A stretch of DNA of 64,000 bases from an uncultured Rickettsiales bacterium (GCA_964654855.1 CAZZJS010000008.1:4220-68219); one strand, 5' to 3'; positions 508 to 17,436 are shown, counted from the first letter of the stretch. The notes: generated from the letters alone by a model not told the origin. Translations and numbers: made by a program.

Positions 508-2244
508 CTACTGCTGCCAAATCGTTATCAAATCATGCATTTTTTTAATCTCCATCTTAAGGTCTGGGGCGAAATCAGAAAGCTTCTTCTCATCACCCCA
601 AGTATCTACTATCTTTCTGGCTCGTTGCTTCTTACGCAGTGAATTAGGAGCAGAATCTTGGGACTTTTGGTCTAAATAGCTCTCAATAGTTTTGAGCTGC
701 GTATCACCTTCAGCATACCATAAACCTAAGTTATACCCTTCCTTACTCAGCCGCGTGACTTCATCTTTAATAAATCGCTTTGCGGAGAAGAAGTTCGATA
801 TATCGATGACTTTATCCTTATCCTCTTTAAATACAGCATCACTGTCTATAACGACATATGCATTTGGGCTGAAACTAAACATTTGAATAATTTTTCTTTC
901 TTCAACACCTTCATCACCACCATTTTTGATAAGACAGAGACTATCTAACAATGCGCCACCATACATCTGAAATTCATAATCTTGTCCACATTCAAAAGAT
1001 TCAAGAGCGTTTTCCTGAGCATACATTGAAAGCCATTTTTCAATATATATAACATCCGATGGACCCTCTACCCATATGACCCCATTACATTGCAAAATAT
1101 CTGAGCCTTTGCACCCTAAATCCAATAGTATCGAATGGGCATTTTTGTTAATTCTTGTGATTTTAGAAAAAAGAGTTGTCATCTTCATTACCCCTTTTTC
1201 TTTCTCCGCAGGATTATAACCATATGTAGGCCTTTGACCGAGCTTGAAATTACAGTCGTTATTCATCCACGCAGCTTTAACTTTGTAAATTGCGGCATTA
1301 TCTCCCATATTTATGAATTCTTGTATTAATACTGGGGAGTGAGATGCTATAAACAACTGCTTTTGAGTGTTTTGATTTTTTATTTCAGCACCTTCCATAT
1401 AGTGTTTTTTGGAGTAATCAGGAAGAAACTCTTCCCAAAAACTCTCGATTCTTTGAATGCTAGGCGATGATGTTTTGATATCGTTAGCGTCAGTTGCCAT
1501 CCAAGCTAAAATTCTGAGCAATCGCCTTATAGCTCGGGGCTCTAAATGTAATTCAGGTTCCTCAATTAACAGGCAGCTTCCTCTATAAAACTGCTGTATA
1601 ACTTTAGCAACATTCAGCATGCCATCAGACCATGAATTCTTATCAAAACTACCTCCTGAACTATGAGATCTGCTTTGTCCTTTCTCATCGAGAGTATGAC
1701 GCTCAATCAATACCTTAGAAGAAACAGAGATTTCTCTCTCAAATATGTAACTAAGAGCAAAACTTAAGTTAACGTGCTGTTGGACGGGCTCATCAATAAT
1801 TATCTGCGGAATGGACATGAGAAATTCAGCTTCTGACCAATTAGGAGAAATCAGCTTTACTTGCCTTTGAGCACTGATTTTTCCCGAAATAAGCTCACCA
1901 TTACGAAAACTGATATTTTGCTCTATTCCTTTATGGTCATCGTATTCAATATTAATATCCCCCATATAGTTGCCATTATCACTGCTTCGCTTACACCTAA
2001 AGTCATGCTTCAATTTTACTATATGAGTTTCAACTATTCTTTTGTTCGCACCATTTTTATGCGAAACAAGCGTTGAGCCAATAGATTCAGAATACGTCTC
2101 TATATTAGAAAGCACCCTGAATATATTGCTCTTTCCAGCACTGTTCTTTCCAATCAATAAATTGAATTGCCGAGCATCCTCTAGCTTTTGCTGATGTCTT
2201 CCAAACGATAGGACGTTCTTTAGGGTAAGGGACTTTACGAACAT
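508..2244 (-). CDS. OLD-family / PARIS-like ABC-type ATPase fused to a Toprim (DUF4435-like) nuclease domain
   Basis: 578 aa. Walker A GKNSAGKSN, Walker B/D-loop LLIEEPELHLEP, H-loop-like ASHSP. C-terminal Toprim-like Glu (VIWVEGPSD) and DxD (VVIDSD). The architecture matches P2 Old, GajA or fused AriA-AriB proteins. Confidence 0.75.
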   Translation of the reverse strand: MFVKSLTLKNVLSFGRHQQKLEDARQFNLLIGKNSAGKSNIFRVLSNIETYSESIGSTLVSHKNGANKRIVETHIVKLKHDFRCKRSSDNGNYMGDINIEYDDHKGIEQNISFRNGELISGKISAQRQVKLISPNWSEAEFLMSIPQIIIDEPVQQHVNLSFALSYIFEREISVSSKVLIERHTLDEKGQSRSHSSGGSFDKNSWSDGMLNVAKVIQQFYRGSCLLIEEPELHLEPRAIRRLLRILAWMATDANDIKTSSPSIQRIESFWEEFLPDYSKKHYMEGAEIKNQNTQKQLFIASHSPVLIQEFINMGDNAAIYKVKAAWMNNDCNFKLGQRPTYGYNPAEKEKGVMKMTTLFSKITRINKNAHSILLDLGCKGSDILQCNGVIWVEGPSDVIYIEKWLSMYAQENALESFECGQDYEFQMYGGALLDSLCLIKNGGDEGVEERKIIQMFSFSPNAYVVIDSDAVFKEDKDKVIDISNFFSAKRFIKDEVTRLSKEGYNLGLWYAEGDTQLKTIESYLDQKSQDSAPNSLRKKQRARKIVDTWGDEKKLSDFAPDLKMEIKKMHDLITIWQQ

Positions 2245-2506
2245 ATTATTAAGACTATTTCAATGGCTGGGATTTTACACGCACTTCGCACCAAGATGTT
2301 TACAAGGCACTTTAAACAAACCACAAGTAACAGCCAAAGTCATCGTTTAGGTTCTTAAGAAAGTAGCAGCTCTCTAACATTGCATTAGATAAAATAAGAG
2401 AGAGGTGAGTAGTATAGGCTTGGATTTCTGGTTATTTAGTCTTCCTGTAGAATATAGTTATCGAATTTCGTCATAACTTTCATCCAACTCTCACCACATT
2501 TGTCTT

Positions 2507-3055
2507 CTAAGCCCTCTTAAAGCCTCTTATCACCCAAGCTAATATACTTCCCAGTGCGTATAGGGTTAAAGCAGTTATGAGCCACCACTTAAAAAAGAAC
2601 CATATGTACTTTGCACGCTCATACACAAGCTGACTTTCGACCATTTGATTCCAAGAGCTTATAGTTTTTTCAATACACTCACTTAGCTTTTCAGTGCTGC
2701 ATTTTCTATAACTTTCAATGTTTAAGTGTACAGAATAACGTAACTTTTTATTGTGCTGCAGAATGATGTTTCTTCGTTGCTCTGACTCTGAAATGGGCTC
2801 TTTATCATTCTTGACCGCTGTCCTCCCTATCGTGGGTTCTGGAATCTTAGAGTTTGAAGAATCATATTCATATACATTAATGTGCTTACGAACTTCTCTT
2901 GGTAATGAGAGCAACACTTTTTCTTCAAAATCATGCTCAACAGGCATTTTGGGGTATTGACGATAAGCGTATAACGAAACAAACACGAACCATGACAGCG
3001 ATATCACAATCCATAGCCTTCGCCAGCCATTCAAATGCGGTAACTTAAATTTCAA
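2507..3055 (-). CDS. hypothetical membrane protein (N- and C-terminal TM helices)
   Basis: 182 aa. N-terminal hydrophobic helix WRRLWIVISLSWFVFVSLYAY and C-terminal IWFFFKWWLITALTLYALGSILAWVI. No recognisable family. Confidence 0.5.
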   Translation of the reverse strand: MKFKLPHLNGWRRLWIVISLSWFVFVSLYAYRQYPKMPVEHDFEEKVLLSLPREVRKHINVYEYDSSNSKIPEPTIGRTAVKNDKEPISESEQRRNIILQHNKKLRYSVHLNIESYRKCSTEKLSECIEKTISSWNQMVESQLVYERAKYIWFFFKWWLITALTLYALGSILAWVIRGFKRA

Positions 3056-3284
3056 TTTATTTACTCCTATAGGTCTCTATTTTTGCTCTAAAGCAAGATC
3101 TGCTGGTGACTGGGGAGTTTCAAAACCTACTATATAAGAGGTCACATTAACCTTTGCTCAAGGAGCTATTGTATACGCCAATGTCTCCCCAGCCAAAGCT
3201 AAGGAGTACGAATGACGGCCGCACAAACCGTATATAGTAAGAGGTTGAAAAGCCCCGCGCAGCCCTATTTCGACTACGCAAGAA

Positions 3285-3303
3285 GAGGATACATACCTGC
3301 GAC
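3285..3303 (-). repeat. possible degenerate, internally deleted copy of the tRNA-Ala att repeat
   Basis: GAGGATACA (3285-3293) and ACCTGCGAC (3295-3303) are two exact 9-mers of the att repeat, in the same order and orientation. The 8 nt GGAGTCGA that separate them in the repeat are replaced by a single T. Confidence 0.35.
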
Positions 3304-3989
3304 TTATTAGCAAGCATGGATGAAATACCATGGTATGATTGCTTGAATGAAAAAGGACCATAGTTGATCTATCGTGCGCAATGAGTTATATTGGGAATTG
3401 AAGTAAAGGGCTCTCTTGGCTCGCCTATGGGGGCATATATTATATTTAGTGTAGGTAGCCTTATCTTGCCCCTTTAAACCTCCTGCAGCCATGCTTATAA
3501 TGCGTTTAAACGTATACTAAGAATTATAGGCATCATCTTGACGCTTGCTGAGCACTAATCTACTAGAATGCCGTTATTTAATCCATAAGAACACCTAAAG
3601 TGCTATATTATATAGTAAATAACTGGGTTTATGTATATGAACTGCCTGTGCTGAAGAGTGATCCTTTGTTTTAGTGTTTCTTAAGCTGTTGATACTTAGA
3701 AATAGTTTTTCTGAGGAGATAGCCTTATATGCCCAGAAATAGCATTAAGGTATATTTATCATAACCTTATCTCTATTCTTGCGATCAATCAGGGGAGACT
3801 ATCGATAGTTAATCTCTTCTTTAAGAATTATACCACTGAACGCATTTACCACTGAACCTTCTGAATACACTAGGTTATTCTAGGCGTTCCTAGTAATGAA
3901 ATACTAAGCTATTCCCAGTATATATCCTTACAATAAAATAATATCACAGAGCTTATGTTCTATAGATTAAATCTTACTCTTAGGATCAC

Positions 3990-5756
3990 CTAAATTTGCT
4001 CTAACCCTTTATAGAACTTTAGCATATTATCTATCACTTGTTCATTGCTCCTATTCTGACCGAATTCTTTCTTTATGATAGTTTGCTTCCCGGGTGATAG
4101 CTTCATTAATCTATCTAATGCCTGATCTTCTATGACTCCTGTCGGATAATCAGCTTTAAGAGGCTTCTTACCCTGTCTAACTTTAGGCTTTAGGTGCTCT
4201 CCTATGAACTCATAGAAAGTTGTCTGGCCAGTTTCTTGCCAGATTGTTTGGCGCGCCCGTTGCTCGTTCGAATGCGCAAAGAGTTGAATAATAAGCTCTT
4301 GATAGTTGCCCCCTGCATCATCCTCTTTAGAGCTATAATAGTGCCTATCATCTCCTTTAATGCCATCTATGCGCACAGAACGTAGCTCTTTCTGCCCAAA
4401 ATCCTTAGCGGCTAGGCGCATGAATGCTTTCTGCATTCTCTCTTTCAGCCGCTCAGCAACACTAGCTCTGCATATGTAACTATCATGAATGCATAGAATA
4501 GGCTCTTTTTCTCTAATGAAGGGATACAGAATAGCCTCTGCGATCTCAGACTCATGATACATGAGCTCTGTGGCCATACCGGTGCCAAAATAATGAGCAA
4601 TCGGTTGATGGCGCATTTGTAGCTGACTGATTAGGAGAGAGGTATCAGGATGATCAGTGGGATAATCTTGAGGGTTTTCTCGTAGTTCCTTAGCGATGCT
4701 CTGCTTCACACTGGCCATGCTCTCATTATTAAGCAAGCGCATGAAGATCATCTTAAGCAGGCTTCTAAAGAGCTTATCCTGTATTTCATTACCTGTTTTA
4801 GGGTATTGAGGGAGTTCATATGGATCACCTATCTCATTTGAGTTAAGCCCCTCCATCGCATAAAGGATGGCGAAAAACATAGCGCGAAAATCCAGCTCTA
4901 CGGTTTCCTCCCCATTGATGATAATATAGCGCCTGAGATTGCTTTTAACGCCGAGCCACCATGCACCATAGAAGCGCCCACCTTTCTCAAACGATCCATC
5001 ATTATAGACTCTGTGGCATTGCTTGCTCGCAAGGTTAATGCGCTGGCCGATAGCAACATGTTCAAACTTTATATCAATGTCGATATAACTACGCTCTAAG
5101 AGTTCATTATAGCCTTTCAGAGCTGCACGTAGTGATTTCGTTTTATGTGTGTCATCATACTCTATGATGTTCTTATTGCGCTCTGCGTTACCTTCTGTGA
5201 GCTCTTCTCCATCCTTGTTCGATTTCTTTAGGATGATGGTTTCACGGTTAGGATCTCGCTGCGCATCACGAGCAGATAACTTATAGTCATGAAAGACTGC
5301 TTTGAGCTTCTCAGTATGGCGAATACGGGTAACTTTACCTCGCTTGGTTCTAGGGTCATGATACCCTGTATGTAGCTCTATATACTCAAGCTTATGAAGC
5401 CAATCCACAGCTCTTCGGAGGTTACGAATAGATAGATGAAGCTTATTATAACGGCTTTCGACATTATAATTACTGTTTCCCAGCATTATACCAATATAGC
5501 CTTCAGGGTTCGTCAAATAGTTGTTAAACAAGTCCAAAAGCATAACACGCAGGTGCCTCTCGAACTTTCTCCTATCGAAGCCACTTGTATCTAGTGTCAA
5601 CACCTCATCATAGATATGCTGGGTCACTCTCTTAGCTTCAGGATAATCACTCCACCGATGTACATCAAATGGACGAGAGTTATTCAAACGCTCCCCCTTC
5701 TTTTCATGGCTTTCAAGTTCTTCACCTGTTCCCGGGGTATATTCTAAATTAGTCAT
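3990..5756 (-). CDS. hypothetical 588-aa protein, possible replication/polymerase-like function
   Basis: Long ORF overlapping the integrase stop by 8 nt (5749-5756). Ordered motifs resemble a right-hand polymerase palm: VELDFRAMFFAILYA (D289), RSLLKMIFMRLL (R331/K335), LCIHDSYIC (H424-D425-S426). The assignment is tentative. Confidence 0.6.
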   Translation of the reverse strand: MTNLEYTPGTGEELESHEKKGERLNNSRPFDVHRWSDYPEAKRVTQHIYDEVLTLDTSGFDRRKFERHLRVMLLDLFNNYLTNPEGYIGIMLGNSNYNVESRYNKLHLSIRNLRRAVDWLHKLEYIELHTGYHDPRTKRGKVTRIRHTEKLKAVFHDYKLSARDAQRDPNRETIILKKSNKDGEELTEGNAERNKNIIEYDDTHKTKSLRAALKGYNELLERSYIDIDIKFEHVAIGQRINLASKQCHRVYNDGSFEKGGRFYGAWWLGVKSNLRRYIIINGEETVELDFRAMFFAILYAMEGLNSNEIGDPYELPQYPKTGNEIQDKLFRSLLKMIFMRLLNNESMASVKQSIAKELRENPQDYPTDHPDTSLLISQLQMRHQPIAHYFGTGMATELMYHESEIAEAILYPFIREKEPILCIHDSYICRASVAERLKERMQKAFMRLAAKDFGQKELRSVRIDGIKGDDRHYYSSKEDDAGGNYQELIIQLFAHSNEQRARQTIWQETGQTTFYEFIGEHLKPKVRQGKKPLKADYPTGVIEDQALDRLMKLSPGKQTIIKKEFGQNRSNEQVIDNMLKFYKGLEQI

Positions 5757-7476
5757 TCAAAACCTCATCCAAAAAGCTGAAATCAAGCTTCTGCATCGAC
5801 TCGTTGAGTTGTTTGTCACTTAAGCTGCTACCGTAGTTTCCTGATACACTGTTGTCTAACCAGCCACCTAAGGCACCAATTGCATCATGGCCTAATTCTG
5901 CTTCTCTCATGGCATCCCTATAACTGTGTCTTAGAGAGTGAAAGCAATCCTTTCGAGGCTCGTTCTTGACACCAGCCTTTATCTGTTGCCTTGCAAATAC
6001 CTTACTGTAAGCATCTGCTGGGTCTTTAGGGCTCATAGCGTCTTCGAATAGATAGCCCGTATCACCGCTTAGAGCCTTCATTTGTTGAAGGTAGTCGAAG
6101 AATCCATATTTACTTAGTGTGCTATTAACGGGGATCTTTCTGACCGAAGCAGACTTCTTAACTCGACGGTCTTCTCTATACTTAATATTGAAGAACCATA
6201 GGTTCTTCAATTCCTCAATTTCTTCCTTCTTGATGAAGAGAATCTCGCTTAAGCGTGTTCCAGCGCATAAAGCAATGAGGGGAAGCCAGAATTTGTACTC
6301 TTGTTTACGGTGATTCTTAAAGCCCATTACTCCATTTTCTGAAAATAAGAGCTTCAATTGGTCATGAGTTAAAGAGTTTCTCTTATTCTTAGCCTTTTCT
6401 TCTTCATTTAAGCGTATTCCTTCCGTAATATCATCAAAGGGTATTTTAAATTCCCTGTGAATGAACTTAAGTAGTCCCCTAAAATCCCTCATATAGCGGT
6501 TTGCTGTATTTGGAGATAGACGTTTGATAGAGTCGTCTTCTTTTGTTTGTGTGATGATTTCCTTAACGGTTTTGTTTGGGAATTTTTTAGTGATGTTGCT
6601 TGGTAAATGACGCAATGCATTCAGGAGAGTGCGGCTGGTATCAATATCGTACTCAAATACTAATGAATGAGGGCTTAAGACCTCTAGCATGACTCTCTGG
6701 TGAGCCTCTTTCTTCTTGCGTGTATCTTCGCTCTTTTGCTGATTCTCTGGTACGCTATTGTATTTATCAATGGCTTCTTGAAGGGTGACTCTGGGAAAAT
6801 CAAGAGCATTATTCAGATCATGAGTTGCATATCGCTTGCTAGGGTCAAGGCGTTTGTAAACTGCCTGAGATAAGCTTCTAACCTTTGTTTTTCCCATTCC
6901 ATCTTTCCAATCCCCCTCATTTCGTTTTCGAATAGTGTGGATGGATTGCACCTTTGCTTGCAAGAGCGCCATGCAGAGAGATTCAAAATTATGCTGATGT
7001 GAGGGCGTCTCCTCATCAAGTTCAATACCAAAGAGAGAAAGTTGATCATTGGCTTGTTGATGCATGATTTCCCAGTTGCCTTCGATAATAGCATCAAGGT
7101 ATTTTTGTTGATACTGAGCATCGCTCTTCTGATTATATTCTTTATAGGCTGTTACTTGTTCCGGTGATAGGTTTTCTAAGAACTTACGATTATGAGGGCG
7201 TGTGCCTTCATCATGGGTGAGCATGAGGTGATAGAATTTTTCACCTATCTGCTCAATAATCTCATCTGTCAGCTCTGGTTTATGCGTCATAATGCCTAAT
7301 TCATGCAGGATTTGAGAAGTTTGCTTCTTTGCATAATAGGTTGCTTCTCTGTAGCTTCCAGTTTTTAAACTGCGCCACACCTCTTTTTTACCAATTGTAG
7401 GCTGTAATTCTTTGGGAACATAGACGCGACAATAATAAGTTCCATCGCGTTTTACTAGGTTTGCTTGGAGTGCCAT
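5749..7476 (-). CDS. tyrosine recombinase / phage-type integrase (large, 575 aa)
   Basis: C-terminal catalytic region: TRLSE...HSLRHSYRDAM...GH...GGW...SGNYG (R, HxxR, H/W, Y). N-terminus LVKRDGTYYCRVYVPKELQ is typical of integrase N-domains. Start lies 85 nt from att copy 7561-7607. Confidence 0.85.
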   Translation of the reverse strand: MALQANLVKRDGTYYCRVYVPKELQPTIGKKEVWRSLKTGSYREATYYAKKQTSQILHELGIMTHKPELTDEIIEQIGEKFYHLMLTHDEGTRPHNRKFLENLSPEQVTAYKEYNQKSDAQYQQKYLDAIIEGNWEIMHQQANDQLSLFGIELDEETPSHQHNFESLCMALLQAKVQSIHTIRKRNEGDWKDGMGKTKVRSLSQAVYKRLDPSKRYATHDLNNALDFPRVTLQEAIDKYNSVPENQQKSEDTRKKKEAHQRVMLEVLSPHSLVFEYDIDTSRTLLNALRHLPSNITKKFPNKTVKEIITQTKEDDSIKRLSPNTANRYMRDFRGLLKFIHREFKIPFDDITEGIRLNEEEKAKNKRNSLTHDQLKLLFSENGVMGFKNHRKQEYKFWLPLIALCAGTRLSEILFIKKEEIEELKNLWFFNIKYREDRRVKKSASVRKIPVNSTLSKYGFFDYLQQMKALSGDTGYLFEDAMSPKDPADAYSKVFARQQIKAGVKNEPRKDCFHSLRHSYRDAMREAELGHDAIGALGGWLDNSVSGNYGSSLSDKQLNESMQKLDFSFLDEVLND

Positions 7477-7560: not shown

Positions 7561-7607
7561 TGGTGGAGGATACAGGAGTCGAACCTGCGACCTCTTGAAT
7601 GCAAATC
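7561..7607 (-). repeat. att direct repeat (copy 3) = 3'-terminal 47 nt of tRNA-Ala
   Basis: TGGTGGAGGATACAGGAGTCGAACCTGCGACCTCTTGAATGCAAATC is identical to 32483-32529. Confidence 0.92.
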
Positions 7608-7724
7608 TTAATTTATATAAATACCCATAAATCACTGTAGGTATATTAGAAGATATTTATCAATGGCTTAAACCCATATATTTTGTTCTTGTGGTATCTA
7701 TAGAGGTGTGCGAAGTTCTATGTG

Positions 7725-7746
7725 TTGGTGCCTATTTGGTGCCTAT
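7725..7746 (+). promoter_or_regulatory. perfect 11-bp tandem direct repeat (TTGGTGCCTAT x2); candidate integrase arm-type or regulatory site
   Basis: TTGGTGCCTATTTGGTGCCTAT lies just upstream of the int B start codon (7759). The 19-nt core GGTGCCTATTTGGTGCCTA recurs at 17438-17456, at the other end of island B. Confidence 0.45.
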
Positions 7747-7758
7747 AATGGAGATAAA

Positions 7759-8925
7759 ATGTCAAATACAGTGAATATCACTAAGCGCTTTGTGGATAGC
7801 AAAGGGGCTGAACCGAAGGATCAAACCTATTGGGATAGTGCTATCCGAGGCTTTGGATTGAAGGTAACTCCGAAGGGGCGAAAAGTCTATTTGTTCAAAT
7901 ATCGCAATATGGCTAAAACTCAGCGCAAAGCTACGTTGGGAGTGCATGGCAATATCACATGTGAGCAAGCGCGTAAAATCGCGCAACAATGGTCGCATGA
8001 GGTATCACAGGGTAATGACCCCGCTGGCAGAAAACAGATGATAGGCGAGTCCCCTACGATTGCTGAATTATGTGATCGATACCTAAATCAATATGCCAAA
8101 CACTACAAAAAAGAGAGCAGTGTTGAATTTGATAGAATTCAGATTGAGAAGCGCATTAAGCCATCAATAGGCAATTTGAAGATAGCAACGATAAACCAAA
8201 ATGATATTACGCGCTTACACCATCAAATGCGTGAAACACCTACCCAAGCGAATAGGGTTTTGGCTGTTCTCTCCAAAATGTTCAATTTGGCCGAGAAATG
8301 GGGTTTGCGCCCCGATATGACGAATCCGGTACGAAACATTGACAAATACCCCGAAAAAGCGCGTGAGCGATTCTTATCGCAAAAAGAGGCGCAACGATTG
8401 CTTGCAGTGCTGGATGAAGAGGAGGAAATGGGGATTGAATCGATTTATGTTATTTCTCTCATCCGTTTGTTAATTTTTACGGGTGCGCGATTGCGAGAGA
8501 TTATGCATGCAAAATGGGAGTGGCTAGATATGAAAAAAGGCTTTCTGCATTTGCCGGATAGTAAAACGGGCAAAAAAACGATTCAATTATCGGCACCCGC
8601 TATATCAATATTAAAGAAACTCCCAAAGCAGGAGAAAAATCCTTACATCATTTGCGGAAAGGTTGAGGGGATGCCTCTAAACAATGCGCGCAAGCCGTGG
8701 CTGCGTATTCGTCAAAAAGCAGAACTCGAAGATGTGCGCTTGCATGATTTACGGCATAGTTTTGCTGCCTTGGCTATTGAGGCAGGAATACCGCTTTACC
8801 ATGTTGGGAAATTGTTGGGGCATAAACAATCTCGCACAACAGAGCGCTATGCACACTTAGCGGATGACCCAATCAAAGCAGCGGCAGAATTAGTAGGAAA
8901 GCAGTTGGATAGCCTCAATGGATAA
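7759..8925 (+). CDS. int: P4-type tyrosine integrase (DUF4102 arm-binding N-domain)
   Basis: Track ORF starts at GTG 7708. ATG 7759 has a GGAG SD. N-terminus ITKRFVDS...YWDSAIRGFGLKVTPKGRKVYLFKYR. Catalytic ARLREI...HDLRHSFA...LLGH...RYAHL. Confidence 0.9.
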   Translation: MSNTVNITKRFVDSKGAEPKDQTYWDSAIRGFGLKVTPKGRKVYLFKYRNMAKTQRKATLGVHGNITCEQARKIAQQWSHEVSQGNDPAGRKQMIGESPTIAELCDRYLNQYAKHYKKESSVEFDRIQIEKRIKPSIGNLKIATINQNDITRLHHQMRETPTQANRVLAVLSKMFNLAEKWGLRPDMTNPVRNIDKYPEKARERFLSQKEAQRLLAVLDEEEEMGIESIYVISLIRLLIFTGARLREIMHAKWEWLDMKKGFLHLPDSKTGKKTIQLSAPAISILKKLPKQEKNPYIICGKVEGMPLNNARKPWLRIRQKAELEDVRLHDLRHSFAALAIEAGIPLYHVGKLLGHKQSRTTERYAHLADDPIKAAAELVGKQLDSLNG

Positions 8926-9826
8926 ATCTGCTTCTTCAGCACTAATAAAGATCATTATGGCGACGACTCAATCGCTGGTGAAAGATGAAAATTCTCACCA
9001 ATCTTATTTTGACATGAGAAAGCAAATAATTCCCTATTTCTGTAATCTCAATGATGAAAAAAAATTGGAAGCTATTAAACTGCTTGAGGCGGAGTTAGGA
9101 GGAAAAGATATTTTGCGTCTGCTTGTGCCAGATCAATATATCGCCAATCTCCTTGCCGTATTAAATGCTCATTATATTTCAGCCTCTAATGGTGTTTCTC
9201 TTGCAAATCTGATTGAGAATCTTGATTCATACCTGCTACCCCAACAGGGGAGCCTACAATCAAAAGCGCGAAAATTGCTATTAGGGTTTATAGCGACCCA
9301 GTTAAGAGAAAATGATGCAACACTAAATGGTGCATATCTTATTTTAGGGGATATGTTCAATACTAGCGAAAGTGATGTTAAGCGGGGCTATAAAGAGTAT
9401 ATTGAAAGCGACCTCCACCGTAATGATCATGCGTTTCAATACCATTTATTGCTGATTTCATTTTGTATGCTTGAATGTGCTAGAGAAAATTGGCGATTGT
9501 CAGAATTAGAGCTTTCAAGCGAGCCATCTTCCAATAAACGGGAAAAGTTAAAAAAAGCCTACGGTGCCTATGATAAATGGCGAATGAATACGATGATAAG
9601 TAATCGTGATGAAGCGCGTGAAATGCTGCTCTCTGACGAGCCGTTAGTTGCCAAATTTATGCGACCGGAATTTGTAGATTTGCTTAATACGAAGCAAGCA
9701 GATTTCACGAATGAAGAAATTATCGCTATTTTAATGTTGCGTATATTTCAAATTGAAGATGATTCACCTATCAATTTGCGTTCAGCATTTTCATTAGATG
9801 AACCTGTGTCAAAGTCTTTGGCCTAG
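8918..9826 (+). CDS. hypothetical protein (302 aa)
   Basis: ORF overlaps the int B stop by 8 nt (ATGGATAA). Predicted mostly helical. No recognisable motifs. Confidence 0.55.
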   Translation: MDKSASSALIKIIMATTQSLVKDENSHQSYFDMRKQIIPYFCNLNDEKKLEAIKLLEAELGGKDILRLLVPDQYIANLLAVLNAHYISASNGVSLANLIENLDSYLLPQQGSLQSKARKLLLGFIATQLRENDATLNGAYLILGDMFNTSESDVKRGYKEYIESDLHRNDHAFQYHLLLISFCMLECARENWRLSELELSSEPSSNKREKLKKAYGAYDKWRMNTMISNRDEAREMLLSDEPLVAKFMRPEFVDLLNTKQADFTNEEIIAILMLRIFQIEDDSPINLRSAFSLDEPVSKSLA

Positions 9827-9940
9827 GTTCAAAGTTTTTTGCTCACCTAGCCAAAAGGTTTGTTCTCCCAGTATTTTAGCATTGTTGGAAGGCGATAAGC
9901 GTCTCCACAAATGTTGAAATCAATAATTGGGGAAAGAACC

Positions 9941-10156
9941 ATGCAGAAAAAATATTATTCACCGAAAGAATTATCGGAACTGTGGGGCGTGTCGGAAAAT
10001 ACGCTTCGCAAATGGCGCTGGGAGGGGAAAGGGCCAAAATTTGTCAAATTAGGTGCGCGGGTGGCATATCGTGCGGTCGATATTGACACTTATTCGGAGC
10101 AAAACCTTCATTCATCTACCACCTTAGCGATGGAGGAGGATCATGCCTCATTATAA
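9941..10156 (+). CDS. AlpA/excisionase-family HTH DNA-binding protein
   Basis: YYSPKELSELWGVSENTLRKWRWEGKGPKFVKLGARVAYRAVDIDTY fits the HTH_17/AlpA pattern. ATG 9941 is preferred over the track start 9911. Confidence 0.75.
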   Translation: MQKKYYSPKELSELWGVSENTLRKWRWEGKGPKFVKLGARVAYRAVDIDTYSEQNLHSSTTLAMEEDHASL

Positions 10157-10460
10157 GCTAAATTTTGATGCAATAAACGAGAAAGCGCTACAGCACAGTT
10201 TTGCCATATTGCGGCGTTGGTTGCCGGATGGAAAGATTGCATGCGGAGAATATATTGCGCGTAATCCCAAACGAGCAGATCGCAAGGCCGGATCGTTTAA
10301 GATCAACCTCACTAGCGGAAAGTGGGCAGATTTTGCAACGGGAGATAAAGGCTCAGGCTTTATCTCATTGGCATCCTATCTTCATAATCTTGAAACTTAT
10401 GAGGCGGCAAAGCAATTAGCGCAGATGCTTGGGATGGTGGGGGTGAGTCATGACCAATAA
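10143..10460 (+). CDS. primase N-terminal (zinc-ribbon-like) domain protein, separate ORF
   Basis: RRWLPDGKIACGEYIARNPKRADRKAGSFKINLTSGKWADFATGDKGSGFISLASYL resembles the N-terminal region of P4-alpha-like primases. Overlaps alpA by 14 nt and the Toprim ORF by 11 nt. Confidence 0.5.
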   Translation: MPHYKLNFDAINEKALQHSFAILRRWLPDGKIACGEYIARNPKRADRKAGSFKINLTSGKWADFATGDKGSGFISLASYLHNLETYEAAKQLAQMLGMVGVSHDQ

Positions 10461-12936
10461 TGTCTCTTTTGCTCCACTTGATGAATCTGAAAAGGAGAAT
10501 CAAGCGCCTAAATCAAAACGAGATACGCTGTGGGAGCCTATCTTTCCAGTTCAAGAGGGTGTTATTGAGCCTTCAGGGATGAAACACCCTAAGCATAATG
10601 TAGCAGTATCACAAGATTGGCCATATTATGATGAGCAAGGCCGATTGCTCGGTTATAATTTACGGTTTGATTTTGAGGTGGATGGCGAGTCTGAGAAAGA
10701 TTATAGGCCTTATACCTATTGGAAAAACACTCAAACGGGCGAATGCCAATGGAAATTTAAGGGGTTCCCAAAGCCAAGGCCGCTTTATGGTTTGGATTGG
10801 TTGGCATCGAATCCGCACGCTACCGTTATTATTTGCGAAGGTGAAAAGTCAGCCCTCGCACTACACAAGGTTGTTGGTGGCGATTATGTTGCGGTTACGA
10901 CCGGCGGCGAGAGTTCAGTCAAATATGCTAATCTCATGCCCCTCAAAGATCGAAAAATTATCATCTGGCCGGATAAGGATAAAGCAGGTTCGAATTACGC
11001 TAAGCAACTATATCAACGGCTGATGGGTGAATCCATTGCCGGTGACGTTTCAATTATTGGGCCACCAACCGATAAGCCGGAAAAATGGGATGCAGCAGAT
11101 GCGATAGAATATGGCTGGGGAAAAACAGAATGCCTAGCCCTTATAGGGAATGCACAAACAGTTAAAATTCCCTATAGGGAAAAGATTCCCTATAGGGTTT
11201 GCGAGAAGGGTTTGTATTTCTCACCACCAGCCAAAGAGGATGGTACCCCCAAGGATGAAATATGGTTATCTGACCCTATAGAGGTGTTAGCACAAACTCG
11301 TGATGAAAAAGGGCATGAATGGGGGCTATTACTTCGCTGGAAAGATGCCGATCATCGTACTCATGAGGAGGCCTTTTCCAAAAAGCATTTTGCGGCATCG
11401 GATGGTAAAGCACTGATTGAGCATTTGCTCGATCGAGGGTTAAATATTTCACCTAATCGCAATAATCGGCAAAACTTCCTCGCATATCTTCAAACAGTCA
11501 AACCACCTCGTATGGCAACTAGCGTGACCAGAGTTGGTTGGAAGGATAGCTTTTATATGCTGCATGATGGGTGCATCCCTAAGAATGAAGAAATTTATCT
11601 GCAAAACGCTGCGATTGAGCATGGCCGTTTCAAGCCAAACGGTACGTTGCCGCAGTGGAGAGAAGAGATAGGTCGCTATATCGCCGGTAATTCTCGGCTT
11701 GTGCTATTTGCATGTTCGGCATTTGCTGCGCCTTTACTCAAAATAGCAGATGAAAAAGAAGGTGGTGGTTTTCATCTTTACGGCGGCACCTCGGTCGGTA
11801 AAAGTACCGCCTTAGAAGTCGCGGCTAGTATTTGGGGTGATCATGATTACATTCACCAATGGCGTAATACGGATAATGCCTTTGAGGCTGTTGCACTTGC
11901 TCATAATGACGGTTTGTTATGCTTAGATGAATTACACCAAGTCGATCCAAAAGCCCTAGATAAAATCATCTACATGATCGCCAATGGCCGCCCTAAAGGT
12001 CGGATGCGTAAAGATACTACGCTCAAACAGGCAGAAAACTGGCTAGTATTGCCCTTATCGGTCGGTGAGGTGACGGTCGAACAACGGCTTGCTGAAGGTC
12101 AGATCAAAGCGCATGGTGGTATGGAAAGCCGTTTTGCGACCATTGCTGCCGATGCCGGAAAGGGTTATGGTCTCTATGATAATATCCATCATTTTACCTC
12201 AGGCGAACAATTAAGCGATCATCTCAAACAAGCTAGTAAGCGCTATTATGGTGCTCCCATTCGTACCTTTATCGAAAAACTAGTACCCATATCGCATGAG
12301 GATATCAAAAGAGAGCTATTGCAGCACCGTGACGCATGGGTGGAGCGTTATGTCAGCTTAGATATCAAAGGGGGTCAAATAGGCCGTGTAGCGAAGCGCT
12401 TTGGCTTGCTCTCTTATGCCGGAAAACTCGCCAATCAGTTTGAGATATTAGGTTGCGGTCAAGATGCGATAGATGAGGGGCTGAGTGTTTGTTTCAGTGC
12501 ATGGCTTTCTGAGCGTGGTACGCTTGGTGATGTTGATATTTATCATGCGATTGAGCGCATCAAAGCATGGTTTAGTAAATATGCTCATAACTCGTTCATT
12601 ACTCTTGGCAGTGAAGAGTTAGATCAAGTTCCTCGTACCATGCGAGAACAGGCAGGTTTTAGCCGTTACATCGACAATCAAAAGCAATTCATTGTGACGG
12701 ATAGTTTCTTCAAAGGTGAGTTTGCAAAAGGCGTGAATGAGAAATCTCTCGCACGTGAACTCGTCAATCAAGGCTATTTATTGCAAGATGGCCAGCAAAA
12801 TACAAAAGTACCGGTGCGTATTCCAGCCCCTCATAGCAATAATAAACCACAGCGCCGGTACATCTTCACACAAAATATAATCGAAAATGAATGCTGTAAC
12901 AGCGTAACAACTGTAACAGAGGAGGAGGTGATATGA
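10450..12936 (+). CDS. Toprim primase / DUF927-type helicase-like replication protein (P4 alpha-like)
   Basis: 828 aa. Toprim VIICEGEKSALAL...IIIWPDKDKAG. P-loop GGTSVGKST with Walker B-like LLCLDELH. Confidence 0.85.
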   Translation: MTNNVSFAPLDESEKENQAPKSKRDTLWEPIFPVQEGVIEPSGMKHPKHNVAVSQDWPYYDEQGRLLGYNLRFDFEVDGESEKDYRPYTYWKNTQTGECQWKFKGFPKPRPLYGLDWLASNPHATVIICEGEKSALALHKVVGGDYVAVTTGGESSVKYANLMPLKDRKIIIWPDKDKAGSNYAKQLYQRLMGESIAGDVSIIGPPTDKPEKWDAADAIEYGWGKTECLALIGNAQTVKIPYREKIPYRVCEKGLYFSPPAKEDGTPKDEIWLSDPIEVLAQTRDEKGHEWGLLLRWKDADHRTHEEAFSKKHFAASDGKALIEHLLDRGLNISPNRNNRQNFLAYLQTVKPPRMATSVTRVGWKDSFYMLHDGCIPKNEEIYLQNAAIEHGRFKPNGTLPQWREEIGRYIAGNSRLVLFACSAFAAPLLKIADEKEGGGFHLYGGTSVGKSTALEVAASIWGDHDYIHQWRNTDNAFEAVALAHNDGLLCLDELHQVDPKALDKIIYMIANGRPKGRMRKDTTLKQAENWLVLPLSVGEVTVEQRLAEGQIKAHGGMESRFATIAADAGKGYGLYDNIHHFTSGEQLSDHLKQASKRYYGAPIRTFIEKLVPISHEDIKRELLQHRDAWVERYVSLDIKGGQIGRVAKRFGLLSYAGKLANQFEILGCGQDAIDEGLSVCFSAWLSERGTLGDVDIYHAIERIKAWFSKYAHNSFITLGSEELDQVPRTMREQAGFSRYIDNQKQFIVTDSFFKGEFAKGVNEKSLARELVNQGYLLQDGQQNTKVPVRIPAPHSNNKPQRRYIFTQNIIENECCNSVTTVTEEEVI

Positions 12937-13112
12937 ATATCAATCAGTTAGAGTGAATCACTTCGTTACAGAATCGTGGTTGGAATCTGTAACCATTGTA
13001 ACTGTTACACTCGTTACGAAATGGAATTAGCAGCCTGTAACGAGTGAAAATAAAATAAGCTATTGATATACAATAACTCAAAAAGCTTGTTACAGCCGTT
13101 ACATGGTTACAA
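12894..13112. repeat. iteron cluster, putative replication origin of island B
   Basis: There are 12 copies of GTAAC/GTTAC, mostly as (C)TGTAACR / YGTTACA: 12896, 12904, 12913, 12965, 12989, 12998, 13004, 13013, 13037, 13089, 13098, 13106. All lie within about 215 bp, where chance expectation is below 1. The cluster starts in the 3' end of the primase gene and is followed by an AT-rich stretch. Confidence 0.6.
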
Positions 13113-13196
13113 AGATTAAAACTTAAATGAATAACGAAATAAAAGTTATTTAACGGTAATGGATGAAATGGCGGAAAAGTGAGTTTTTATTTCGTC

Positions 13197-13240
13197 ATTT
13201 CCCTTAGGGAAAAACAGTTTTTGCACTCCCTAAGGGAAAT
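13197..13240. repeat. perfect 14-bp inverted repeat (ATTTCCCTTAGGGA ... TCCCTAAGGGAAAT), 16-nt spacer
   Basis: Arms at 13197-13210 and 13227-13240 are exact reverse complements. No T-run follows, so a protein-binding or ori-associated role is likelier than a terminator. Confidence 0.5.
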
Positions 13241-13336
13241 CCTGCGATAGTGAGGTTTCGCTATATATAGAAATCAAAACAGTAAAAAGAACAGTTTAAA
13301 ACTGTTTTTAAACAGAAAAATAAAAGGAATTGAACA

Positions 13337-13570
13337 ATGATACGATTAGTTGCAATGGCGATGGGAGTGGGTTTTGCTGCTATCGCCGCTAAAATACTCG
13401 AAACGGAAAAAGAAGCTCCTATTTTGGATGAACCTGCCAATATGGAAAACGATGGTGAAATGAAAGACGAAAACGCCTATCAGCGCGGAGATCGTTTTTT
13501 CTGCCCCGATACAGGAATAGAGCTACAAGTTCGCGCTGTCGGGGGCCGCCCACGTAAGAATGAAGTTTGA
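13337..13570 (+). CDS. small hypothetical protein with N-terminal TM helix (77 aa)
   Basis: AAGGA SD lies 8 nt upstream. MIRLVAMAMGVGFAAIAAKIL is hydrophobic and the middle is acidic. Confidence 0.4.
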   Translation: MIRLVAMAMGVGFAAIAAKILETEKEAPILDEPANMENDGEMKDENAYQRGDRFFCPDTGIELQVRAVGGRPRKNEV

Positions 13571-13639
13571 CGCAATAGATTAATCAGCGTTACACTTTTA
13601 CCGAAAGGTTTTCTTCTGGCCAAGAGCGGACATTCAAGC

Positions 13640-14434
13640 TTAATTATTTTGTAATTTATTGCATCCTTCGGGATAGGTTTTTCCTACCTCCTTAAATATT
13701 ACATCCTCTGCTGTATGAACTTTAAGTACTTTCGCTGTTTCTAGGCAATCTACAATGGCCAAGTCAGTGCCTTCAATACTCACTGTGACTCCCATACTGG
13801 CAGCCCATGCTTTGGAAGCTGTACTAGCCACAGAATGGGCATTCCAACCATCTCGAAGCTGAGTCTGTACTTCTACGATGCGCGGCCTTCCAATGCTTTC
13901 CAACTTATTTGCAATGATATTATCTGATAACCAAAAATATGCAGATTCTCCACCCCAGCTTCTAAGCAAAGGTTTAACACCACAATGGTTAGCTGATTTT
14001 GGGGTTGTAACCGTCCAAAATCGATTTGATCTGCTATCTGCTTGTTTTTGGAATGGACTTTTTTGCAAGATAATATCAACTTCATTTTTTGTTAAAAGTT
14101 GTTTGCTCTTGAGGGTCTTTAGGCGTTGGTGCAAGCTATCAAGCGTGGATGCAGTTATGCGATCTTTCATAGACAATACCTCATCATCCAAGAGTCTTGT
14201 ATAATGCCACACACGTATTGATCTCTCTAAAAACATGGGGGTTATAATATGTTCTAATGCTTCGTTGTAAGCTGCACTGTATTGATTTGGTTTTAAGCTT
14301 TCATATGGATCACTATTTAAGTGCTCATCCATTAAGCGCTTTTCTTCACTAAAATAATTAGTAATAAGGGCGGAACAACTAACCAATAAGCTCCGAAGCT
14401 CATTATCAAATGTTTCTGGGTTCCAGCAATCCAT
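13640..14434 (-). CDS. hypothetical protein (264 aa from ATG 14434; 266 aa if TTG 14440), downstream partner of the two-gene cargo operon
   Basis: ATG 14434-14432 shares its A with the TGA stop (14436-14434) of the upstream ORF, giving TGATG. No recognisable domain. Confidence 0.7.
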   Translation of the reverse strand: MDCWNPETFDNELRSLLVSCSALITNYFSEEKRLMDEHLNSDPYESLKPNQYSAAYNEALEHIITPMFLERSIRVWHYTRLLDDEVLSMKDRITASTLDSLHQRLKTLKSKQLLTKNEVDIILQKSPFQKQADSRSNRFWTVTTPKSANHCGVKPLLRSWGGESAYFWLSDNIIANKLESIGRPRIVEVQTQLRDGWNAHSVASTASKAWAASMGVTVSIEGTDLAIVDCLETAKVLKVHTAEDVIFKEVGKTYPEGCNKLQNN

Positions 14435-16143
14435 CAACAACCCTCAAACTGACTCTGAACAATCTCTAATTCATCGCATATAATTTCACAAATGTGGCGA
14501 AAGTGAGAAGCATATGTTTCATGCTCACTCAATGCATCCATTGATAATTGCTCAGCATCACTTTTTGCGCTGTGCCCTTTCGCTTTGGTTCGAATAAGTT
14601 GGGCTGTACGCAATCCATTTAGTTTCAGTGGCTCTTCTATCTCCTCATTCGAGTTAATGACTTTCTCAAGAAGAGATAGGCTACCTTCTTGTTTATCGAA
14701 AGTGATACTCCTTTCCCTTAACCGTTCACGTAAATCCTTTACTACAAACCCCTCATGAATAAGTTGTGTAAGAGCTAGAAATGACTCCGCCCACTCATCT
14801 CGGCTTGAGGTTAGCGGAACTGTAGCGTTATCAATTAGCCGGTCATCTTTAAGTTTCCACCAAGAATGTTTATTTCTATTCCAATCACGAGAAAAATTCT
14901 TAATTTTTTCTAAAGGGTCAACGAATGATACAAACTGCCCTTCAAAATCATTTACAAATGCTCTTTTTGAAATAGAAGCTTTTGGTTCCTCATTGTATGA
15001 GAGCCAATGCAATAATTCCGATTCAGGCAACCTACGTAAATAACACATATACGCGAATACTTGTCCTGCCTCATTCACATCAAATGCCTCAAGATACCAT
15101 GCTGCCCTGCAATGGATATCTCTCTCCCCTATGGTATATTTATCCTTATCAGCTTTATATTTAAGCAATACTTCTGGCTTGAAAAATGCAGGTGAAAGCT
15201 CAAATGGAAGGTCGTTATTTTCGGTTTCAAAATAATTCACTGTTTCTTTAGGGTCTGTTGATATTTTCCTTACCCGATGGTTTCTCCAGTCATAAGCAAT
15301 AAACTCAAAATGATTCGTATCTTTCTCTCCATAAAAACCACCCTTCATATCAGAGAAGATTAATGACTTAGATCTCCTTGGCCGAACAATCTGAACCCCT
15401 CTGGTATAGGCAGCATCACCATTTATTTTTTGTCTGTAAAACAGTGTACCATTAATATCGAGAATAGCTTCATCACCACCTCCCCAGCTCGAAAAGTTAG
15501 ACCTATCAAGCAATGTAAAATCAAAAAGTCTTACCAAGACTTGGTTTGAAGCAGCAAGATATGAATCGAGAGACGAACGATCAAATGTAACTAGTGAAAT
15601 TTCATTTATCGAATTTCGTTTTGTAATTGATACACATGGCTTAAGGTCTCCTTGCTCATCAAACTTACAATAACCGCGCTGCTCAGGTCGCCAGTGTAAA
15701 CCTTCAAGGTGAGCGTACTCCTGAGAAAGTTCAAAGTAATCTCGATCTTCACCACTCCAACCTTCAAAAGTTCTTCCATAAATGAGATGAGAGCCTTTAG
15801 CTAAAATTTTTGAACCAGTTCCACTTGCTCCACGTTCAACCCATATGTCATCTCTTCCACCGCCCCAAACATAGCTTGCAGCAGATACATATGGATTTAC
15901 ACTCCACCCCAACAAGTCATCTTTGTCTAATGGGTTCATAAATTCTTCAGGAACTACCATGCCATAAACAAAGCTGTACTCAGCTGCTCCATAGACCACT
16001 ATTTCTTGAGATTTTGTATTATTTTCAAGAAACCCAAGATGTGCTTCGGCTTGAACCCACTCCGCCATAGTTTTCTTTTCTGACGGCAGCTTATCAAGAT
16101 TCACAAGCTTCTCAGCAATTTTTTTATGTTCAAAACTTGGCAT
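14434..16143 (-). CDS. hypothetical protein (569 aa), upstream partner of the two-gene cargo operon
   Basis: Long ORF with ATG start. Duplicated W-G-G-G motifs at residues 93-96 and 220-223. C-terminal helical region contains RTKAKGH (Rx5H, 14572-14592). No P-loop or other diagnostic motif. Confidence 0.75.
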   Translation of the reverse strand: MPSFEHKKIAEKLVNLDKLPSEKKTMAEWVQAEAHLGFLENNTKSQEIVVYGAAEYSFVYGMVVPEEFMNPLDKDDLLGWSVNPYVSAASYVWGGGRDDIWVERGASGTGSKILAKGSHLIYGRTFEGWSGEDRDYFELSQEYAHLEGLHWRPEQRGYCKFDEQGDLKPCVSITKRNSINEISLVTFDRSSLDSYLAASNQVLVRLFDFTLLDRSNFSSWGGGDEAILDINGTLFYRQKINGDAAYTRGVQIVRPRRSKSLIFSDMKGGFYGEKDTNHFEFIAYDWRNHRVRKISTDPKETVNYFETENNDLPFELSPAFFKPEVLLKYKADKDKYTIGERDIHCRAAWYLEAFDVNEAGQVFAYMCYLRRLPESELLHWLSYNEEPKASISKRAFVNDFEGQFVSFVDPLEKIKNFSRDWNRNKHSWWKLKDDRLIDNATVPLTSSRDEWAESFLALTQLIHEGFVVKDLRERLRERSITFDKQEGSLSLLEKVINSNEEIEEPLKLNGLRTAQLIRTKAKGHSAKSDAEQLSMDALSEHETYASHFRHICEIICDELEIVQSQFEGC

Positions 16144-16388
16144 GATTAATAACGCTATGTCCTTATATTAATCCGAATTAAAAGGTCCGCTTTGGATCGA
16201 AAGAAGTCACATTACAACTTTATATATACATAAAGGAGCTGCGCCTAATAATATTCTTTGAGCAACTTTTTCACTGAAAAATTAGAGGGGATTAAATAAT
16301 CATATTGAGAGGTGAGTTCAATTCAAATTAAGGATGGAAATAATTTCTCAGGGGCCGCAGTCCTTTCTTTTAAGGCTGCGATAATTTG

Positions 16389-16429
16389 AAAAAAGGGAGC
16401 GCTTCTAGTGACAGCACTCCCCCTTTTTT
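16389..16429 (-). terminator. rho-independent terminator downstream of the lipoprotein gene (A-run and T-run on both sides)
   Basis: AAAAAAGGGAGCGC-ttctagtgaca-GCACTCCCCCTTTTTT. An 8-bp stem with one mismatch, flanked by T-runs on both strands. Confidence 0.6.
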
Positions 16430-16451
16430 AAGGTTAATCTAATTAGCTAAA

Positions 16452-16949: not shown

Positions 16950-16995
16950 GCTTCAGTGTTCCTTATGGGTTGTAATTAGTACGTTATTTTTAGGT

Positions 16996-17133
16996 TTAAT
17001 GGCAGTGGTATGGCTGAGAGCCTGCATGGCAGCATTTCCCTTGAGGGGAGTCCTTACGGCAGCCCCCGCCGTGTGCTAAAGCAGTTCCGATAGTGAATGT
17101 TAGAAGTATGGCTACAGTTATGATTAACCTCAT
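16996..17133 (-). CDS. small secreted Cys/His-rich protein (45 aa), YHYH-motif-like
   Basis: Absent from the track because it is under 60 aa. MRLIITVAILLTFTIGTALAHGGGCRKDSPQGKCCHAGSQPYHCH*. Has a signal-like N-terminus and ends in YHCH. Confidence 0.4.
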   Translation of the reverse strand: MRLIITVAILLTFTIGTALAHGGGCRKDSPQGKCCHAGSQPYHCH

Positions 17134-17346
17134 TTTACGCCGCCTTTTATTATATATAATTTATCAAAGTGTTACTCTAACGATAGGCTAAGAATAGTCA
17201 ATTAAGCTAATTATCATTCCTGTTAAAGATGTAGAAGGGTAGCCCTATGAAGGTTAAGTAAACATAGATCATCGCCAGAAAGGTAGCACAAGGGTGACGC
17301 CAATTAAATTCTAGATTTATGAAATCGCGGGAAGCCGCTTTAGTGT

Positions 17347-17391: not shown

Positions 17392-17436
17392 GTTCATCAA
17401 ATGATGTATATACCTAGAATGGTGCGGACATTCTAC

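Follow-up and report, generated by a model that had tools for sequence, protein, structure and literature searches.

A 64,000-nucleotide (nt) stretch of DNA from an uncultured Rickettsiales bacterium (GCA_964654855.1 CAZZJS010000008.1:4220-68219), here called the window and analyzed over its whole length, carries a gene for a 588-amino-acid (aa) protein, X, coupled to the gene for a tyrosine recombinase (integrase). An earlier note on this DNA had read polymerase-like motifs in X by eye and had proposed a minimal self-replicating element made of integrase and polymerase. The locus raises the question of what such a protein does: copy DNA, transcribe it, serve in defense, or assist the integrase. 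We report here that X is a minimal polymerase of the superfamily that holds the family-A DNA polymerases (PolA) and T7-like RNA polymerases (RNAPs), based on its fold, the conservation of its residues, and its genomic context. It is probably the replication module of a small island that integrates at tRNA-Ala, and most probably a TV-Pol, a kind of polymerase described in 2008.

Polymerase fold and catalytic residues

X contains three motifs in order: a motif A-like VELDFRAMFFAILYA at residues 286-300 (D289), a motif B-like RSLLKMIFMRLL at residues 331-342 (R331, K335), and a motif C-like LCIHDSYIC at residues 421-429 (H424, D425, S426). The motifs lie where the earlier note had placed them, and across 51 aligned homologs, which share 26-35% identity with X, none of the seven residues proposed as important (E287, D289, R331, K335, H424, D425, and S426) varies. 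R249, G260, R261, W267, and R275 are likewise invariant, and D311, L339, N343, and D402 are conserved in at least 90% of the same sequences. The family consensus reads ExDYSGLHIxLLYA ... RxxxKxxLLxAINA ... PVLCIHDSFIV. Judged from this alignment, the conservation of the motifs is well beyond chance.

An AlphaFold model of X, built on the homolog alignment, is confident over residues 30-460, with a predicted local distance difference test score (pLDDT) mostly >90 and a predicted template modeling score (pTM) of 0.73. Motifs A, B, and C follow one another on a palm and fingers fold. When the model was compared with the PDB using Foldseek, all of the top 50 matches were family-A DNA polymerases or human mitochondrial RNAP (E ~1e-4, probability ~1.0); the family-A matches include the apicoplast polymerase, Bst, Taq, T7 DNA polymerase (DNAP), Pol nu, and the enzyme of phage G20c. 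The TM-scores are low (0.2-0.3) because only ~280 columns, those of the palm and fingers, superpose. A search of BFVD returned phage homologs first (E down to 7e-24), followed by PolA enzymes and T7-like RNAPs. The resemblance to a polymerase palm that had been read by eye is therefore borne out by structure comparison, and the motif residues align with those of Pol I and T7 RNAP as described below. Two outcomes that the earlier note had named as telling against its reading, a non-polymerase fold and catalytic Asp residues not conserved among homologs, were both tested, and neither was found.

Residues were mapped using hhalign with reference profiles built from relatives of Escherichia coli Pol I, T7 DNAP, and T7 RNAP. 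The local alignment to Pol I (E 0.056) pairs D289 with D705, F294 with E710, R331 with R754, K335 with K758, L339 with F762, and N343 with Y766, and the GGRFYG..WQxIP stretch aligns with TGRLSS..PNLQNIP. The local alignment to T7 RNAP (E 1e-4, probability 58%) pairs the D402-S helix with the H784 helix and H424-D425-S426 with H811-D812-S813; a global run against T7 RNAP pairs R331/K335/L339/N343 with R627/K631/M635/Y639. The mapping is colinear and consistent with the fold result, with marginal sequence statistics. At the steric gate of Pol I, E710, X has Phe (F294) where at least 90% of the family have His; Pol I Y766 and T7 RNAP Y639 correspond to N343 of X, a position occupied by Asn in at least 90% of the family.

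Searches of Pfam, NCBIfam, PADLOC, and PDB sequences with X, as a single sequence and as a profile, gave no match. PF00476 (DNA_pol_A) did not match even at E up to 1, and the family-profile threshold was not reached; PF00940 (RNA_pol) did not match; and the profile search of PDB sequences returned 0 matches. In PHROG, X matches phrog_4756, a family of unknown function, at 1e-59, and weakly matches an "RNA polymerase" family over the HDS region (E 0.0096).

That last match bears on one alternative, in which X is a DNA-dependent RNAP of the T7 type that uses promoters of its own to transcribe genes of the element or phage and does not prime replication. Motif C of X reads HDS, as in H811-D812-S813 of T7 RNAP and not HDE as in PolA, and the best profile-profile score (E 1e-4) was obtained with the T7-like RNAP profile, but only the motif C region aligns to that profile. 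Y639 of T7 RNAP, the Tyr that selects ribonucleoside triphosphates, is replaced by Asn in X, and the steric-gate position carries a bulky Phe or His, not Gly. The core of X spans ~210 aa, compared with >450 aa in T7 RNAP, and is without promoter-recognition or specificity-loop elements. Large lytic phages that carry X homologs could make use of their own transcriptase, but an element of 2-8 genes would have little need of one, and the sole characterized TV-Pol uses deoxyribonucleoside triphosphates (dNTPs). We consider a transcriptase unlikely.

The polymerase core of X consists of a beta-hairpin with G260 and R261 (strands 248-251 and 259-263 in the model), motif A with D289, fingers with D311 and R331xxxK335, the D402-S helix, and H424-D425-S426. 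Invariant R249 stands at the end of the N-terminal part, just ahead of the core. Where a thumb would lie, one long confident helix (204-222) precedes the hairpin, and the segment that would be its partner (~181-200) is of low confidence. The model contains no exonuclease-like region. The C-terminal tail has pLDDT <50 at residues 472-545 and is longer than in most homologs, which are typically ~500 aa and mostly 440-540 aa long.

Probable membership in the TV-Pol family

The TV-Pol family was defined by Iyer, Abhiman, and Aravind (2008, Biol Direct 3:39; PMC2579912). TV-Pols are proteins of 400-600 aa without a known domain that have a minimal PolA/T7-like RNAP core and are never fused to a nuclease. 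As described, the core has a thumb of two antiparallel helices, N-terminal to a beta-hairpin that bears an invariant Arg; two Asp residues in the palm; and, in the fingers, an Asp and RxxxK. One subset has an extra N-terminal globular domain (TV-PolN); the neighboring gene encodes an integrase of the lambda type, a gamma-delta resolvase, or a transposase, and the setting is an integration hot spot with restriction-modification (R-M) operons. This subset was reported from Rhodobacterales, Rhizobiales/Brucella, Geobacter, Desulfococcus, Vibrio, Alteromonas, and some phages, and its members were predicted to be primase-polymerases of replicative mobile elements (all PMC2579912).

X agrees with this description in length and in having neither a defined domain nor a fused nuclease. 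The Arg of the pre-palm hairpin is present (R249, G260, and R261 are invariant), the two palm Asp residues are the invariant D289 and D425, and the fingers Asp and RxxxK are D311 and R331/K335. The X family also shares the integrase and resolvase neighbors, the cargo of R-M, Mrr, and restriction endonuclease (REase) genes, the host taxa, and the occurrence in phages. Two differences were noted: the N-terminal domain is described as all-helical in the TV-Pol paper, whereas that of X is modeled as helices plus a small sheet, and TV-Pol elements were framed as replicative transposons, whereas X elements are site-specific tRNA integrants with att repeats.

The N-terminal region of X is probably a TV-PolN-type domain. 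It likely contains a winged-helix fold, as suggested by a Foldseek search with its model, in which the matches were weak and uniformly to winged-helix proteins of the MarR, TFE, and PadR types (best E 0.02, probability 0.9). Residues 88-205 also weakly match a PHROG of a DnaD-like loader (E 0.022). The winged-helix matches of the model are compatible with origin binding by X and are not evidence for such binding.

From its match to the published description, X is quite likely a member of the integrase/resolvase-linked branch of the TV-Pols, and as such it is a new example of an already described, barely studied kind. The 2008 paper already covered the family, the contexts in which it occurs, and the function predicted for it, which makes the discovery incremental; the earlier note was unaware that polymerases of this kind had been described as TV-Pols. 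The Ma-LMM01 protein gp134 ("putative DNA primase", adjoining transposases) was considered as the named TV-Pol of that phage and rejected, as it is a DnaG-type primase.

Hosts and phage relatives

A first homolog search found 209 proteins of ~500 aa, none of them annotated. An exhaustive profile search yielded 11,394 cluster representatives at E <=1e-3, of which 5,394 were at E <=1e-30; no Pfam or NCBIfam model exists for the family. When one genome per species was scanned, relatives of X were found in 477 of ~186,000 species representatives, mostly Rhodobacterales, SAR116, and Rhizobiales, with further hosts among Desulfobacterota, Geobacterales, Nitrosomonadales, Methylophilaceae, Clostridia, and Dehalococcoidia.

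Among phages, 161-243 genomes encode relatives; most belong to lytic phages of 110-150 kb that infect Vibrio (including ICP1), Aeromonas, Pseudoalteromonas, Shewanella, and Rheinheimera. The phage homologs belong to phrog_4756, are often present in two copies, and are nearly all annotated as hypothetical; one from a Rheinheimera phage carries the name "DNA polymerase" in BFVD. Examples are found in ICP1_2001_A (HQ641353.1, 53296-54780; locus L011) and Vibrio phage 11895-B1 (76755-78023; locus L010). The ICP1 homolog lies among small early-region genes and is apparently split in some isolates.

Genomic context of X relatives

The earlier note had asked whether homologs of X are always linked to an integrase, and the linkage is close to general. 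In a survey of 80 genomic loci, a tyrosine recombinase gene lies within 10 kb of X in ~33 of the 38 loci with full 10-kb flanks. All-against-all clustering of the neighboring open reading frames (ORFs; >=60 aa) at 85 loci identified the integrase as the only broadly recurrent neighbor family (51/85), and no gene for a helicase, primase, SSB-like protein (SSB, single-stranded DNA binding), partition protein, or relaxase recurs near X in this set. The closest homolog of X (34% identity; locus L003) has the same DUF6538 integrase and the same 8-nt overlap with it and stands directly after a tRNA-Ile gene, in an element of 8.7 kb with its cargo downstream of X.

A tRNA gene flanks nearly every X locus, and at more than 25 loci a direct repeat of 17-60 nt from the tRNA end bounds an element of 5.0-13.5 kb. 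The integrase and X genes either adjoin or occupy opposite ends of the element, and the cargo lies between or next to them; the distance from X to the integrase is 1-8 kb in most family members, X often being at the far end. A locus of Falsihalocynthiibacter sp. SS001 (complete genome; L085) has X directly beside tRNA-Gln in a 6.05-kb tRNA-Gln-flanked element. No tyrosine recombinase was detected inside this element, which may use another recombinase or be immobilized. At 12 of the 85 loci, a serine resolvase gene (~210-260 aa, Pfam Resolvase plus helix-turn-helix [HTH]; for example, L072 6082-6876) is convergent with X and immediately downstream of it. Such loci match the elements with TV-Pol and gamma-delta resolvase known from Brucella.

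The cargo of X islands includes genes for R-M systems, Mrr, SIR2, and REase. A second alternative is that X itself is an effector or accessory of anti-phage defense or phage interference, for instance, a polymerase of the abortive-infection type. The islands are indeed rich in R-M, Mrr, SIR2, REase, and OLD/AriA-like ATPase genes, but these differ from locus to locus, and the integrase is the only conserved partner. The homologs encoded by phages could be counter-defense genes; X itself matches none of 5,027 PADLOC models and holds the position of the replication module in the standard layout of integrative elements. A defense role seems to us quite improbable.

Element boundaries, cargo, and noncoding DNA

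The coordinates of the features are given in Table 1. The 8-nt overlap between the integrase and X genes, ATGACTAA, was confirmed: the integrase gene ends in ...AAT GAC TAA, and X starts with ATG ACT AAT. The integrase matches Pfam DUF6538 (6.5e-16) and Phage_integrase (3.3e-8) as well as PHROG 1 integrase (2.4e-25), and its R...HxxR...Y residues are all found (H513, R516).

Table 1. Features of the X element and of its possible cargo, in window coordinates
Feature	Position	Strand	Description
Possible cargo of ~8.2-kb element	508..3055	minus	membrane protein and ATPase
OLD/AriA/GajA-like ABC-type ATPase, 578 aa	508-2244	minus	Pfam AAA_21, AAA_15; PADLOC AriA 8.8e-18
Membrane protein, 182 aa	2507-3055	minus	possible cargo
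Degenerate att-like sequence	3285..3303	minus	9-mers GAGGATACA and ACCTGCGAC, both exact, with a 7-nt deletion between
Noncoding AT-rich stretch downstream of X	3304..3989	.	65% AT, compared with 57% in X
X, 588-aa ORF	3990..5756	minus	overlaps integrase stop
X residues 461-588, C-terminal tail	3990..4376	minus	unconserved in alignment; low model confidence
X residues 251-460, minimal PolA/T7-RNAP-like catalytic core (~210 aa)	4377..5006	minus	invariant columns, model, Foldseek, hhalign
X residues 1-250, N-terminal accessory region	5007..5756	minus	AlphaFold domain model, pLDDT 86, pTM 0.80
Tyrosine recombinase (integrase), 575 aa	5749..7476	minus	N-terminal DUF6538 domain; orientation inward from att
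att site, integrase-proximal element boundary	7561..7607	minus	exact 47-nt copy of tRNA-Ala(TGC) 3' end

The overlap suggests a third alternative, that X is a recombination accessory acting in directionality or excision and translationally coupled to the integrase, like the iolg gene of PICMI satellites, which overlaps int and is required for excision. The overlap is kept in the closest homolog of X, but in most of the family the two genes are 1-8 kb apart, and X often stands at the other end of the element. A directionality factor needs no polymerase fold with an invariant two-metal site, and iolg genes are small and unrelated to X. We regard this as very improbable, and the iolg analogy was dropped, most X genes not overlapping int. 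As a separate observation, all three integrase genes of the window are overlapped at the stop by the next gene (5749-5756, 8918-8925, and 18920-18923; 8, 8, and 4 nt). The three overlapping genes are mutually unrelated, and the arrangement is reminiscent of iolg.

The sole tRNA gene in the window is tRNA-Ala(TGC) at 32483-32558 on the minus strand. In addition to the copy of its 3' end at 7561-7607, which is common to the X element and the neighboring island, a further copy is present at ~17504-17550. The exact repeats are 7575-7597, 17518-17540, and 32497-32519, and 0 such matches are expected by chance. With three copies of the tRNA-Ala 3' end, the window is a tandem array of three islands at one tRNA-Ala.

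Of the two att boundaries in the earlier note, the integrase-proximal one thus stands as an exact tRNA copy, and the other, at 3285-3303, is statistically marginal. The latter scores 23, compared with a null of 12.3 +/- 2.1 (per-tile p ~7e-4 over ~3,200 tiles); it is the best att match near the element, yet across the window it lacks significance, a chance match near 60.2 kb being just as good. The sequence may have arisen by decay of an att or by chance. Around 60217-60232, AGTCGAACCTGCGCCC matches the T-arm part of att/tRNA-Ala at 15 of 16 positions; no tRNA was called there, and this may be chance or a tRNA remnant.

The contig, here locus L001, reaches 4.2 kb past window position 1. At L001 16346-16370, ~600 nt outside the window, CTCCTGTATCC-CCACCATTATTTCA gives a 25/26 match that covers the last 18 nt of tRNA-Ala and the 8 nt following the gene. 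A second remnant of tRNA-Ala, a T-arm-like 15/16 match, lies at L001 16149-16164, ~400 nt past window position 1. The L001 remnants mark the distal end of the island array, with a DUF3179 gene and an RTX-repeat gene beyond.

The stronger remnant implies an element of ~8.2 kb with cargo. The possible cargo comprises the membrane protein and ATPase of Table 1, and a 214-aa gene downstream of the ATPase (L001 15351-15995), which has no match, is the third cargo gene of such an element. The best PADLOC matches of the ATPase are AriA (PARIS), ATPase-Toprim, HEC-01A, GajA, and Old, and on these similarities it is probably an anti-phage defense gene. The size of ~8.2 kb and the content are typical of the X family (5.0-13.5 kb, defense cargo). 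A minimal two-gene element of ~4.3 kb, as first proposed, is doubtful and not established, with its left att marginal and the 25/26 remnant pointing farther out; the DNA may hold either an 8.2-kb element or a 4.3-kb element beside a decayed one.

The noncoding stretch downstream of X, 3304-3989, holds TACCACTGAAC twice, 16 nt apart, at 3831-3857, and is a candidate origin or regulatory region.

Proposed role of X

Starting from the observed fold, the invariant residues, the linkage to integrase and tRNA, and the lack of any other conserved partner, we infer the following course for the X element. The DUF6538-type integrase would excise the element between the tRNA-derived att repeats to give a circle. 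X would then bind the circle, its winged-helix-like N-terminal region possibly contacting an origin in the noncoding DNA alongside, and would synthesize a primer de novo, extend a primer, or both; D289 and D425 would form its two-metal site, and the nucleotide-binding helix would carry R331 and K335. Replication would be initiated without an element-encoded helicase or primase, host proteins supplying the rest. The amplified element could reintegrate or could be transferred passively in capsids or vesicles, as has been proposed for tycheposons and marine satellites.

Several results weigh against this role or against the TV-Pol assignment. The sequence links between X and PolA or RNAP are marginal, with no Pfam or PDB sequence match and hhalign E values of 0.056 and 1e-4. 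Compared with Ma-LMM01 gp030, presumed to be a TV-Pol because it adjoins transposases, X has motifs that appear colinear by eye, but 16% of shuffles reach a score as good, and the hhalign match (E 0.08) falls in another region; since the gp030 score is not above shuffles, TV-Pol membership rests on the match to the published description. The one TV-Pol studied experimentally, CcPol, requires an OB-fold partner and a helicase, neither of which is conserved beside X. A search for iterons and inverted repeats in 3250-4000 found only one 2 x 11-nt repeat and no origin. Across the family, a conserved origin beside X was not supported: an excess of 9-mer repeats was driven by four loci, and X loci with 73-78% identity have unconserved downstream flanks. 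No free circular copy was seen, the terminal overlap of a circle being absent from all 23 small contigs. A role as a small-plasmid Rep was rejected: only four plasmid or chromid matches were found, all on replicons of 0.13-2.2 Mb. Homologs in lytic phages of 110-150 kb with replication genes of their own show that X is not solely an island replicase.

Replication of the island nevertheless remains the probable role of X. Transcription, defense, and recombination accessory function each fit less well with a catalytic site that is invariant, a distance to the integrase that varies, the lack of PADLOC matches, and the integrase as sole conserved partner. There is an outside chance that X and its ~11,000 relatives form a single-chain lineage separate from the TV-Pols, joining an origin-binding domain of winged-helix type to the smallest PolA-type core known. 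Islands of 5-13 kb that integrate at tRNAs could then start their own replication with a single protein, needing no helicase, primase, or SSB as partner; the enzyme of virulent ICP1-like phages would be a replication module shared with the islands, by which these act as satellites of such phages.

Enzymes of the TV-Pol type are regarded as similar to the minimal core from which Pol I and the T7-like RNAPs descend. The branch to which X belongs is large, has no family model, and is annotated "hypothetical" even in the well-studied cholera phage ICP1. Its recognition would give a replication function to a class of small tRNA-integrating defense islands of marine and soil Proteobacteria and makes available to biochemists a compact primase-polymerase that may work without partners.

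Neighboring islands in the window

The island at 7561-17550, between two tRNA-Ala fragments, has a P4-type integrase gene (7708-8925), whose stop is overlapped by 8 nt by a 302-aa gene (8918-9826). Also present are genes for an AlpA/HTH_17 protein (9911-10156), a 105-aa protein, and a DUF6371/Toprim/DUF927 primase of 828 aa (10450-12936). Neither of two other genes (14434-16143 and 13640-14440, minus strand) has a match in Pfam or PADLOC. The layout of int, overlapping gene, alpA, and prim is that of PICMI or P4-like satellites, but the site is tRNA-Ala instead of fis.

The third island, 17504-32483, adjoins the intact tRNA-Ala gene and carries a P4-type integrase gene (17703-18923) overlapped by 4 nt by a 173-aa gene. 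It contains an LlaJI-type R-M system with an HTH-m5C methylase (19563-20831), an AAA_5 ATPase (20901-22484), and RE_LlaJI (22477-23721), together with a DUF2130 gene (25117-26400) and a gene for a beta-lactamase fold (30102-31121).

Comparison with known systems

CcPol, a distant TV-Pol of SCCmec and other Bacillota elements, belongs to the PolA-SSB type of primase and acts with its OB-fold partner MP and the Cch2 helicase. CcPol-MP has been shown experimentally to be a template-dependent dNTP primase-polymerase (Bebel et al. 2020, PMC7581432). CcPol is the only experimentally studied TV-Pol, the other members being described with the words "none ... biochemically characterized" (PMC7581432). 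Like X, CcPol-MP has an A-family-derived polymerase in the replication slot of a small integrative island with defense or R-M cargo, and the catalytic Asp and the O-helix R/K are conserved in both. CcPol is annotated as A-family, keeps part of a 3'-5' exonuclease domain, and conserves E710, whereas X has no Pfam PolA match, no exonuclease remnant, and an unrelated N-terminal domain. The CcPol operon includes the helicase and the OB-fold MP, and in Bacillota its elements depend on large serine recombinases, with rlmH or ssrA as the site; X elements use tyrosine integrases at tRNAs, mainly in Proteobacteria. A 2023 survey found PolA-SSB pairs only in Bacillota (Rice 2023, PMC10061031).

Tycheposons and VEIMEs (Hackl et al., bioRxiv 2020.12.28.424599; Eppley et al. 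2022, PMC9618062) resemble X elements in being small and tRNA targeting and in leaving repeats of partial tRNAs as well as tandem arrays; they occur in marine Alpha-, Gamma-, and Deltaproteobacteria. A tycheposon is defined by an inward-facing tyrosine integrase and a small replication module, either adjacent or at the far end, with cargo between (bioRxiv 2020.12.28.424599). The window shows this layout, with att followed by the integrase and then X. The replication modules published for tycheposons are primases, primase-helicases, and "polymerases"; an X-type protein is not mentioned.

Pipolins (PMC11551731), which are integrative elements that replicate themselves, share with X elements a tyrosine recombinase, a single polymerase gene, defense cargo, and tRNA-flanked integration. 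Their polymerase is a primer-independent family B enzyme (PolB) and not of the PolA superfamily; it is therefore analogous, not homologous, to X.

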